Shown piece by piece: positions 9,209 to 11,068 of a DNA stretch of 53,298 nucleotides. Numbering within the stretch: the first letter of the stretch is position 1; the number at the start of each line of letters is the position of its first letter. A program made the position numbers and the translations under genes. Under the pieces are notes generated by a model that searched no databases, had not been told where the DNA came from, and saw nothing but the letters and a program-made list of their open reading frames with translations. This DNA is from a virus (Duplodnaviria > Heunggongvirae > Uroviricota > Caudoviricetes), in the IMG/VR virus record IMGVR_UViG_2558860170_000008; one strand, 5' to 3'.

Positions 9209-9234
9209 TTCCTGAAAACCTCGGTTTACGGGAA
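9209..9234. promoter_or_regulatory. gix-like recombination site (gin-proximal): TTCCTGAAAACC-TC-GGTTTACGGGAA
   Basis: Imperfect 12-bp half-sites around a central dinucleotide, at the outer edge of the 70-bp inverted repeat; matches the Gin/Hin-type crossover-site architecture. Confidence 0.6.
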
Positions 9235-9290
9235 ACGGTAAACAGGGCGGCGAATGCTCTGCCATCGGACGGCACCGCCGTTGCCGCGAA
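9221..9290. repeat. 70-bp inverted repeat, left copy (1 mismatch to the copy at 10470..10539)
   Basis: TCGGTTTACGGGAAACGGTAAACAGGGCGGCGAATGC(T/C)CTGCCATCGGACGGCACCGCCGTTGCCGCGAA present in inverted orientation at both ends of the segment. Confidence 0.85.
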
Positions 9291-9582
9291 TAGACTCGCC
9301 ACCCCAAGAAATATTAATGGGGTTCCCTTTGACGGGACGCAGGACATAAACATCACTTCTGGTATAACACAGCAGGATGCGGATTCCCGATATATCCAGG
9401 ATATCAGGCTGGGAGCAGAGAACAGGCAGGTAATGTACGGTGGGGCATATTACTCTGCGTACGGTAATGTTATGGCAGGCCTGCAGATTGACAGTAAAGT
9501 TGATGCTTCAAACGATTTTATAGCATTCAGACCCCTGCAAAAATTAATCGGAGGTACATGGATTACGGTATCTCAGTTATAA
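9291..9582 (+). other. Silent alternative tail-fibre C-terminal cassette (S'v-like), promoterless in the present orientation
   Basis: Open frame continuous with the repeat-encoded peptide [26 protein letters not shown] then [21 protein letters not shown]...TVSQL*; would fuse to the constant part of S after inversion. Confidence 0.6.
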
Positions 9583-9633
9583 ATAGTCAGTAAATAATAT
9601 ATTTTAAAACAGATTTATTTCCAGGAGGATTTT

Positions 9634-10155
9634 ATGGAACTAAAAAATATAACCCGTTATTATCCTGAAAATATGCCATATGGTAATAATGTTCAGTATT
9701 TCCAGAGTGAAGATGGTAAGGATTTCTACGAATCCCTGCCATTATTCACCAAAAAATATAAACTTTGCATAACACCTGACAGCGGCGTTATCTGCTCAAT
9801 ATCACAGGACGCCTCGGCGCTGTATCCTGCGGGGTTTTCTGTGGTTGAGGTCGATGAACTCCCTGAAGGCACGGATATTTCAGGAAACTGGAAGTTTGAT
9901 AATGGCATAATCTCCCGTATTCCGGTTAACTACGCAAGAAAACTGGAAGCAATGCGCCAGTCATATCTTAATCAGGCATATGAAAAAATTAATGACTGGA
10001 GAACGGAGCTACAACTGGGCACCATCAGCGATGAAGACAGAGCAGCACTTACCCAATGGATGGCATACATCAGTCAGGTGAAGAAAATGGAACTACCCGC
10101 CATTAAAACAGAAGCTGAATTTAACGCCATTAAATGGCCTGAGCAGCCACAGTAA
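9634..10155 (+). CDS. Tail-fibre assembly protein (Tfa/U family), paired with the silent cassette
   Basis: 173-aa ORF with ATG preceded by AGGAGG; C-terminal ...AEFNAIKWPEQPQ resembles Tfa-family termini. Confidence 0.75.
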   Translation: MELKNITRYYPENMPYGNNVQYFQSEDGKDFYESLPLFTKKYKLCITPDSGVICSISQDASALYPAGFSVVEVDELPEGTDISGNWKFDNGIISRIPVNYARKLEAMRQSYLNQAYEKINDWRTELQLGTISDEDRAALTQWMAYISQVKKMELPAIKTEAEFNAIKWPEQPQ

Positions 10156-10158
10156 TAA

Positions 10159-10178
10159 AGAAGGCCGGAAGGCCTTCT
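10159..10178. terminator. Perfect hairpin AGAAGGCC-GGAA-GGCCTTCT between convergent tail-fibre-assembly and tail-fibre genes
   Basis: 8-bp stem and 4-nt loop seen directly. Confidence 0.5.
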
Positions 10179-10186
10179 GAATATCA

Positions 10187-11068
10187 TTATATACTTGCAG
10201 CCGTCACCCATGCTCCATTTAACAGATACTGCAACGGCCGGTAATACACGCCGCCGACGTTATCTGCCGTATTCTTACCGACATCCTGTACTTTAATTCC
10301 GGTAAGAACATTGCCGCCCCCCAGATTCAGATCCCAGCTTTCCCATGTTCCGGGCATATGTGCGGTCACCGACCCCAGTCTTATGGCGGTTACTGTTCCT
10401 GATGAGATAGTGATATCCTGCGTCCCGTCAAAGGGAACACCATTAATTGTGTGGGCATTTGCCAGCCTGTTCGCGGCAACGGCGGTGCCGTCCGATGGCA
10501 GGGCATTCGCCGCCCTGTTTACCGTTTCCCGTAAACCGACGTTATCGATAAAAGCCCCTTTATCCGGAATGTCTGCGCCGTTCTGCTCCCTGCGCAGGTA
10601 ACGGTTATCACCTTCGCTTTTGCTGTAAACATCCAGATTATTACGGGCGGTTCCCTTATTCTCCAGGTCGGCGAGATTCTGATCCTTCGCCAGGGCATTA
10701 ACGTCAGCGGGACCAAGACTGTTTTTTGTGGCAAGCGTCCCCAGACCAAGATAACCACGGGCCAGACGCTGGGCCTCCGCACCGGCATCAGCAATTTCTT
10801 TCAGGTTATTTTTCCGGGAAAAGGCATTCGCAGCGATAATGGCTTTAATGGACAGCGTAAGCTGGTTTAACTGCGCCTTATCCGGCTGAATACTGGCTTC
10901 AGCCAGAATATTCAGCAGTTCGGCCTGGAGAATATTCAGCCAGTCCTGACCAATCCAGCTGATACCTTTTTGTCCGTCACCTTCGGTAAACCAGGTGGTG
11001 GTATTACTCTGCGCCGGTGCCAGCGCAGGCATATTCGCCACGCCGGAATTATTATCAACATGAAACAT
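10187..11068 (-). CDS. Tail fibre protein (Mu S-like): constant N-terminal part plus the currently fused variable C-terminus
   Basis: 293-aa ORF; residues 177-200 are encoded by the inverted repeat; the C-terminal 93 aa lie inside the invertible segment. Confidence 0.85.
10470..10539. repeat. 70-bp inverted repeat, right copy (inside the tail-fibre gene)
   Basis: Reverse complement of 9221..9290 with one mismatch; position calibrated from S codons 177-200. Confidence 0.85.
10526..10551. promoter_or_regulatory. gix-like recombination site (tail-fibre-proximal): TTATCGATAACG-TC-GGTTTACGGGAA on the minus strand
   Basis: Same inner half-site as the left site, different outer half-site. Confidence 0.55.

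Follow-up and report, generated by a model that had tools for sequence, protein, structure and literature searches.

A Gin-type invertible tail-fibre segment with two alternative tips and a single chaperone gene, conserved in a clade of Mu-like Escherichia coli prophages

Invertible tail-fibre segments are well described in phage Mu, in which the constant N-terminus of the fibre protein S lies outside the G segment and the alternative C-terminal parts lie inside it in opposite orientations, each with its own tail-fibre assembly (Tfa) chaperone gene in the symmetric order Sv-U / U'-S'v; SfMu is arranged in the same way. The P segment of e14, with its invertase Pin, and the C segment of P1 and P7, with Cin, likewise use Gin-family invertases to flip alternative fibre C-termini, and they too are symmetric, with a tfa for each tip in e14 (stfP-tfaP / tfaE-stfE) and the order Sv-U / U'-Sv' in P1 and P7; the repeats of P1 are about 0.6 kb long. 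The Min system of plasmid p15B is a multi-site inversion system. Here we describe an invertible tail-fibre segment in a 53,298-nucleotide stretch of caudoviral DNA (IMG/VR record IMGVR_UViG_2558860170_000008; the whole stretch is called the window below). By the tests that apply to Gin-family inversion systems, this element appears to work like the G segment of Mu. What is new is its asymmetry: there is one chaperone gene for two tips, and one of the defining features of Mu, P1 and e14, a chaperone gene for each tip, is missing. No published analysis of such a one-chaperone asymmetry was found in the literature. As far as comparison of sequences can take us, it is secure that the element is a working switch of the Gin type, presumably for host range, and that its layout with one chaperone is conserved.

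The resemblance to Mu begins with the gene order, which is that of Mu and SfMu: gp47, gp48, S, the segment, a co-directional invertase, com, mom. Between Mu Gin and the invertase of the window the identity is 73.9%, and the latter has the Pfam domains Resolvase (E = 1.6e-51) and HTH_7 (E = 4.9e-15). The fibre matches PHROG 1833 ‘tail fiber protein’ over its full length (E = 6.7e-141), its constant part being 47.5% identical to residues 1-191 of Mu S. The invertible segment covers positions 9209-10551 (1.34 kb), and both limits are the outer ends of 26-bp gix-like sites. These two crossover sites stand in inverted orientation, have an identical central dinucleotide and share the inner half-site GGTTTACGGGAA. 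The Mu sites, TTATCCAAAACC-TC-GGTTTACAGGAA, have the same TC core, and their inner half-site GGTTTACAGGAA is one base apart from that of the window. When the window was scanned for AAACCNNGGTTT with at most one mismatch, the site at 9209-9234 was the only partnered match. Within gin, nucleotides 71-85 contain a strict match to the Fis consensus in a 14-nt run that is identical in the window, in Mu and in the related locus L005, and is also conserved in SfMu; as a candidate recombinational enhancer it is only suggestive, and the conservation of a second Fis site 48 bp away is not clear.

An earlier note on this DNA, made from the letters alone, had described a Gin-type segment bounded by 70-bp inverted repeats, longer than those of Mu, in which the fibre gene now ends in a short variable C-terminus, followed by a terminator and by no tfa on the same strand, so that only the inverted state would have a chaperone partner. 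This description has stood up in all respects except the length of the repeats. The repeats are there, and they are indeed longer than the 34 identical nucleotides of Mu, but their real homology is about 150 bp, in stretches of 86 and 50 nt. They are long because the first ~47 codons (GLRETVN...DGTQDI) are common to both tips; the repeats are thus shared coding sequence, and after this shared start the two tips diverge into ends of about 70-75 amino acids. Otherwise the segment is compact, at 1.3 kb against 3 kb in Mu, and so is the fibre, at 293-296 amino acids against 504 in Mu, of which only the last ~117 codons switch. These codons would be exchanged on flipping because one of the gix sites lies inside the fibre gene.

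We call the two tips distal and proximal according to their position relative to tfa. The distal tip is the one expressed in the window, and no assembly gene is found on its strand; its stop codon and that of tfa converge at a distance of 31 nt, and within these 31 nt lies a terminator-like hairpin. The proximal tip is silent: a six-frame motif read-out shows its cassette to be in frame with the gix core and without a start codon of its own. RefSeq labels it ‘phage tail protein, missing N-terminus’, and such silent tip cassettes are routinely annotated as a pseudogene or ‘hypothetical protein’, a point of interest for genome annotation. The single tfa stands downstream of the proximal tip, as is expected of the Tfa family, and it matches Pfam Caudo_TAP (PF02413; E = 4.8e-19, 69.2 bits against a cut-off of 22.1), PHROG 136 (E = 4.7e-56) and Mu U (PDB 5yvq_B; E = 4.2e-16). 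Its product is 28-32% identical to U and U'. In Mu the gap between S and U, and between S' and U', is 2 nt, whereas here tfa is flanked by the hairpin and by a 51-nt spacer (Table 1).

The earlier note had named an unrecognised assembly gene elsewhere as one way in which the asymmetry might prove illusory. A scan with hidden Markov models (HMMs) found no second full-length Tfa within the prophage, all other matches in the window lying outside it. Two further places for a hidden chaperone were considered and rejected: the small antisense open reading frames (ORFs) within tfa are not conserved, and the high synonymous divergence of tfa argues against an overlapping gene there; the downstream DUF1378 and DUF826 genes belong to the NanS-p block of Shiga toxin (Stx) phages.

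Table 1. Positions of the invertible segment, its parts and the other features of the window that are discussed in the text
Feature	Position	Strand	Remarks
Second Pin-type invertase	1..462	-	truncated at the window edge; 79% identity with the Gin-like enzyme
IpaH/SspH-like LRR + NEL E3-ligase type III effector	932..2758	+	prophage remnant
Caudo_TAP fragment resembling the Mu U C-terminus	2759..2938	-	prophage remnant
DUF4376 Tfa-like gene	2938..3561	-	prophage remnant, 6 kb from the segment; not part of the switch element
stf, C-terminal fragment	3512..4009	-	prophage remnant
DUF826 cargo gene	5814-6068	-	downstream of esterase
DUF1378 cargo gene	6104-6298	-	downstream of esterase
NanS-p-like sialate O-acetylesterase, 684 aa	6431-8485	-	SASA + DUF6645; PHROG 143
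Candidate late promoter, esterase gene after invertase	8521-8555	-	CCGCAAA-N22-TATTCT
Gin-type serine DNA invertase, 190 aa	8571..9143	-	co-directional with the fibre gene, as in Mu
gix-like site, invertase side	9209..9234		TTCCTGAAAACC-TC-GGTTTACGGGAA; central dinucleotide 9221-9222; aligned with Mu gixL, gixR
Inverted-repeat arms, pair 1	9214-9299 / 10461-10546		86 nt, 93% complementary
Silent tip cassette S'v, tfa-proximal, type B, 119 aa	9223..9582	+	ends ...FRPLQKLIGGTWITVSQL
Inverted-repeat arms, pair 2 (continuation)	9313-9362 / 10398-10447		50 nt, 84% complementary
AT-rich spacer, proximal tip to tfa, 51 nt	9583..9633	+	
tfa (tail-fibre assembly gene), single, 173 aa	9634..10155	+	convergent on the fibre gene
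G+C-rich hairpin, terminator-like	10159..10178		8-bp stem with 5 G-C pairs; minus-strand tail TTATTACTGT
Fibre gene, 293 aa	10187..11068	-	ends 8 nt before the hairpin
Expressed tip cassette Sv, tfa-distal, type A	10187..10538	-	last ~117 codons of the fibre gene
gix-like site within the fibre gene	10526..10551		reverse complement TTATCGATAACG-TC-GGTTTACGGGAA; central dinucleotide 10538-10539
Constant N-terminal part of fibre S, ~177 aa	10539..11068	-	outside the invertible segment
Mu gp48 homologue	11068..11628		Pfam Phage_Mu_Gp48; fibre gene directly after
Mu gp47 homologue	11619..12701		Pfam Baseplate_J
Candidate late promoter, head protease I gene	24476-24511	-	
Candidate late promoter, lysozyme gene	32658-32693	-	
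stf, N-terminal part	43018..43707	-	PF08400

The structure recurs in 237 of 5426 complete E. coli genomes (~4%), and chance is therefore no issue. Among near-identical prophages the window orientation is found in 17-18 genomes and the flipped one in 5-6, and opposite orientations even occur inside single genomes (DLI.5a, TOE17, AST46 and the O157:H7 strain Z869), which implies that the segment is active and not fixed in one orientation. The flipped state is exactly what had been predicted: in FORC_043 a 296-aa fibre coding sequence, with the proximal tip on the constant part, is followed by tfa on the same strand. One derivative (L002, positions 2486-4225, from strain M3 and also seen in M1, M18 and CI5) has lost the invertase and the proximal tip and is frozen with the distal tip expressed; its tfa is intact but antisense, behind a spacer of type ii.

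The one-tfa layout is not peculiar to the window; it is the rule for the whole E. coli clade, including prophage Sp18 of O157:H7 Sakai. For comparison we fetched thirteen further E. coli loci from the window lineage, the Shiga-toxin-producing E. coli/Sp18 lineage and others (numbered within L001-L018), together with Sakai Sp18 and the IMG/VR contigs L019-L027. Each of these relatives has exactly one tfa between two inward-facing tips, and the hairpin stands at the same position in all of them; in lineages L005 and L013 its T-run belongs to the strand of tfa. Around this fixed plan the parts vary: distal tips are of type A (that of the window) or C, proximal tips of type B (again that of the window), D, E or F, and the relatives' spacers, of 52-120 nt, fall into three unrelated types. 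Synonymous divergence between lineages is often above 1, and the ratio of non-synonymous to synonymous substitution (dN/dS) is 0.06-0.21 for the distal tip (type A 0.09-0.11; type C 0.06-0.21), 0.12 for the proximal tip and 0.08-0.23 for tfa. Such low ratios despite the high synonymous divergence imply that the partner-less tip is a selected coding sequence. The idea that Tfa co-varies with one of the tips was tried and rejected: the allele comparison showed three Tfa alleles without co-variation with either tip, allele alpha occurring beside four proximal and two distal tip types. Within the clade the N-terminal half of Tfa, which in Mu U is the fibre-binding domain, is 73-100% conserved and the C-terminal half 46-92%. 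This half-by-half pattern is the reverse of the general Tfa pattern quoted in the literature (PMC9608196).

Sp18 is a described member of the same Mu-like clade, with a fibre (ECs_4989), a convergent tfa (ECs_4990), a tip fragment (ECs_4991), the invertase (ECs_4992) and the esterase (ECs_4993), in DNA that is ~80-85% identical to the window. It differs in its tips, C and D against A and B here, in its Tfa, which is only 61% identical, and in having another spacer type and another hairpin type. A 2009 study noted its invertible region as distinct from that of Mu and as ‘atypical’, and reported that Sakai releases Mu-like contractile-tailed particles, seen by electron microscopy, and packaged Sp18 DNA (PMC2669165).

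The layout also reaches beyond E. coli. A prophage of Citrobacter braakii (L011; NZ_NAEW01000001, 6000-11500) has three gix sites (~6812, 8850 and 9205), three tips and one tfa, a shufflon-like version of the switch, and in this it is like multi-site systems such as Min, from which the window differs in having two sites and two tips. In the Citrobacter prophage one tip is followed by the next tip cassette and then by tfa, all on the same strand, so that a single chaperone gene would share its transcript with two different tips. The remaining tip, tip 3, which runs from 9216 down to 8872 and ends 8 nt before the next gix, is the one currently expressed, and it faces tfa across a hairpin, as in the window. 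With three tips to one tfa, several tips per chaperone looks like a recurring design. After the invertase this prophage has a second fibre (320 aa, with collagen-like repeats) with a DUF4376-type assembly gene of its own. A single-protein scan of genome contigs gave two loci; the Edwardsiella locus ends at the contig end inside S.

Among 56 informative Gin-family loci surveyed in IMG/VR, at least two tfa genes, usually a convergent pair, were present in 41; 13 had one, and in 2 none was detected. Five of the 13 one-tfa loci belong to the clade of the window. Another six are P2-like segments (L028, L038, L070, L084, L092, L093) that resemble the window in having a Gin-family invertase (~75% identity) and one Caudo_TAP-type tfa detected by HMM. 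They differ in that a conserved ORF of 60-90 aa (PHROG 5400, weakly similar to the Tfa family PHROG 188) stands behind the second tip, whereas the distal tip of the window has none. In these six loci both tips thus have an accessory gene, and the PHROG 5400 product may, to judge from its sequence, be a minimal chaperone. The consensus MRLFNP.TLTEVIPG.HD...DNWFF... of this small ORF is seen in L028 (5362-5631, minus strand), L038, L070, L084 and L093.

We propose the following mechanism. The Gin-type invertase would recombine the two inverted gix sites and flip the 1.32 kb between them, exchanging two homologous but divergent receptor-binding tips on S. In the first state, that of the window, the late tail transcript would encode S with the distal tip and then the hairpin, with tfa antisense and probably unexpressed; in the second it would encode S with the proximal tip and then tfa. 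Both states would yield functional fibres, the distal tip being assembled without a co-transcribed Tfa and the proximal tip using Tfa. On balance we judge it probable, if only modestly so, that fibres with the distal tip are produced and are functional although no Tfa is co-transcribed with them, and that the proximal tip relies on a generalist Tfa. The distal tip, being under purifying selection, is a working coding sequence; that its fibre is functional and Tfa-independent is what we infer. Tfa itself appears to be a generalist for the tips of the clade, because its alleles do not co-vary with the tips and because that of the Citrobacter prophage lies downstream of two of them. It is possible, though doubtful, that in the distal tip nature has provided a member of the Mu S / P2 H family which forms trimers with no Tfa at all. 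The Tfa of Mu stays on the fibre tip after assembly and has host-surface binding of its own. Were the distal tip to trimerise unaided, each flip would change not only the tip sequence but also whether the fibre carries Tfa—a two-layer host-range switch—and the phage would contain a matched pair of tips with which to work out why a fibre tip depends on a chaperone.

Whether tfa can be expressed in the window orientation bears directly on this proposal. There it is antisense to the late tail transcript, and consensus scans in three lineages found no sigma-70-like site on the tfa strand. An outward promoter between gin and gix was considered and rejected, as this region has no good hexamers and varies among the lineages. 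A candidate late-promoter motif was derived by setting the DNA that precedes the lysozyme and protease I genes beside the four C-dependent promoters of Mu; the motif, CCGCAAA-N21-24-TAnnCT, has three copies in the 53-kb window against 0.07 expected (Table 1). It is unlike the CATAACCCC C-box of Mu, and the C homologue at 32698..33120 has limited similarity to Mu C in a global alignment. The window scan gave no copy of the late motif near tfa, even at one mismatch, and none at the position of the Mu P promoter or before com; the TTAT-N6-ATAA / CATAACCCC box of Mu is missing from the spacers when these are inspected by eye. The third copy of the motif stands in front of the esterase gene, and this unit would therefore be independent of read-through across the segment. 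Compared with synonymous sites, the spacer shows unusual conservation only in its last ~40 nt, which is compatible with a translation-initiation region. With no recognisable promoter on the tfa strand, the genome would make no Tfa in the window orientation.

Several observations weigh against a distal fibre that dispenses with Tfa. Both tips of the window fall in the Mu S / S' / P2 H tip family, the proximal one being homologous to the Mu S tip (PDB 5yvq_A, residues 435-502; E = 5.7e-8) and 45.5% identical to the Sv' tip of P7; the distal one has as homologues the Mu S' tip (8ju3_A, residues 423-488) and a short tail fibre (9cuy_c; E = 1.6e-9). A chaperone gene stands directly after such tips in the annotated maps of Mu, SfMu, the rV5-like JeffSchatz and ESCO5, and the same is true of the fibres of P2 and P7 with tips of this family. 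In Mu the formation of tail fibres needs U as well as S, as Grundy and Howe (1984; reference 22 of PMC9881135) reportedly found. The distal tip retains the C-terminal motif YYRPxQxxxNGxW that is common to all Tfa-partnered tips. The promoter scans, being consensus searches, could miss an unrecognised promoter in a spacer of 52-120 nt, and no demonstrated infectivity was found in the literature consulted for any phage of the clade in either state. Within the Mu S / P2 H family a tip with no partner gene at all is the exception, since the other members examined are followed by a chaperone gene. There is, then, an unlikely but far from negligible possibility that one chaperone serves both tips and that the distal tip needs Tfa too, supplied from an orientation-independent promoter in the spacer, from minority copies that flip during lytic replication or from the tfa genes of other prophages. 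That the two tips are related to one another, and both to tips that depend on Tfa in Mu, would fit this, as would a chaperone in all other family members examined, alleles that are promiscuous as to tips, and the position of the Citrobacter tfa behind two tips. An AT-rich spacer of 52-120 nt uncouples tfa from the proximal tip, where Mu has 2 nt, the frozen derivative with the distal tip retains an intact tfa, and a foreign Tfa-like gene and a tfa fragment lie nearby in the window. The hairpin of L005 and L013 has no T-run in the Sv direction, making read-through into gin, and with it more late flipping, conceivable. The almost invariant last ~40 nt of one spacer type can be read in the same way, although they could be a mere translation-initiation region. 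On the other hand, neither a sigma-70-like site nor the late motif occurs on the tfa strand in the lineages tested, and spacers of three unrelated types speak against a conserved tfa promoter. Supply from other prophages would depend on the strain, and it cannot explain a layout that is kept across backgrounds and insertion sites.

The absence of a chaperone from the distal tip's strand could also mean that the window orientation is an OFF or decoy state, in which the fibre is not assembled for want of Tfa or the tip serves the lysogen and not the virion, so that the switch toggles between infective phage and fibre-less or non-infective particles. There is a precedent in phage defence, the StfE2 chimera made by fibre inversion in the cryptic prophage e14, which blocks the adsorption of other phages (PMC12529663), and for the Sakai particles seen by electron microscopy the cited passages of the 2009 study (PMC2669165) yielded no report of infectivity. 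We nevertheless consider this improbable: the distal tip is under strong purifying selection throughout its length, its structural C-terminal motif included, as fits a folded tip; the tip stands at the end of the late tail operon and not behind a lysogenic promoter; and it comes in two types and several alleles, as expected of receptor-driven diversification. The distal orientation is, moreover, the commoner one in lysogens, which is hard to understand if the other tip founds the lysogens, unless there is a strong bias in flipping. A query made of the junction between constant S and distal tip C is covered to at least 80% in 184 of 231 genomes, and the window lineage stands at ~3:1 for the distal orientation, although clonal O157 genomes inflate these counts, which lack phylogenetic independence, and an assembly shows no more than the majority orientation of its culture—limits that again count against our preferred reading. 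The chaperone-less orientation is also the state of the Sakai reference genome, and the counts sit badly with its being a dead end. Least credible of all, and in our view very improbable, is that the layout is the decaying remnant of a symmetric Mu-type G segment which lost one chaperone by deletion and now has no functional meaning. The segment is short compared with that of Mu, some copies (L014, L016, L015, L001) are frameshifted, whether in gin, in S or in the silent tip, and a derivative without gin exists, but the layout is common to lineages saturated at synonymous sites, with intact ORFs, low dN/dS and both orientations, it is also found in Citrobacter, and the prophage is otherwise complete and has a particle-making relative in Sakai. 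Selection, conservation and orientation frequencies thus disfavour both the OFF or decoy state and decay.

The two tips are also of practical interest. Tail-fibre chaperones hamper the re-engineering of host range, as tips usually must be moved together with their Tfa. Here a single shaft can bear either of two homologous tips of ~75 aa, only one of which has a chaperone gene, and this conserved, selected pair is a ready test of Mu/P2-type Tfa dependence and of one Tfa for many tips. The clade is common in pathogenic E. coli, including O157:H7 with Sp18, and its host-range logic therefore bears on the gene flow by transposable phages in Shiga-toxin-producing E. coli.

The segment is housed in a complete Mu-like transposable prophage that spans ~4.1-43.0 kb of the window. 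For an identical copy in E. coli JE86-ST05 the annotation lists a repressor, the transposition genes A and B, Gam, Mor/C, lysis genes, head genes, sheath, tube, tape measure and the baseplate genes gp45-48, followed by the fibre, the segment, the invertase, three cargo genes, com and mom. In the window, too, the genes that adjoin the fibre are homologues of Mu gp45-48. The three cargo genes, a NanS-p-like esterase cassette with DUF1378 and DUF826 genes, fill the interval from the invertase to com/mom, which is empty in Mu; the N-terminal ~110 aa of the esterase are unlike NanS-p and give no DUF1737 match. In Stx phages the same block of esterase, DUF1378 and DUF826 separates stx from the lysis genes (PMC10462455). 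RefSeq annotates a ‘tRNA-OTHER’ in the JE86-ST05 copy (L004, 27101-27180), equivalent to ~25180-25260 of the window; ARAGORN found no tRNA anywhere in the window.

Single copies of the prophage have inactivating mutations of various kinds. The silent distal tip is frameshifted in FORC_043 (L001, 2224-2540), the invertase is frameshifted in STEC2017-197 and in the second AST46 copy (L014, L016), and the fibre gene is broken in SCU-171 and SMN197SH3 (L015, L018). The Mu-like prophage has inserted into the side-tail-fibre gene (stf) of a second prophage, of which a remnant is left on both sides. The second Pin-type invertase of this remnant could act in trans on the gix sites. The effector gene of the remnant occupies the place expected for an invertible fibre segment, and a cluster of insertion sequences (43761-47782; IS66 family, IS3-type integrase, IS110 family) lies beside the disrupted stf.

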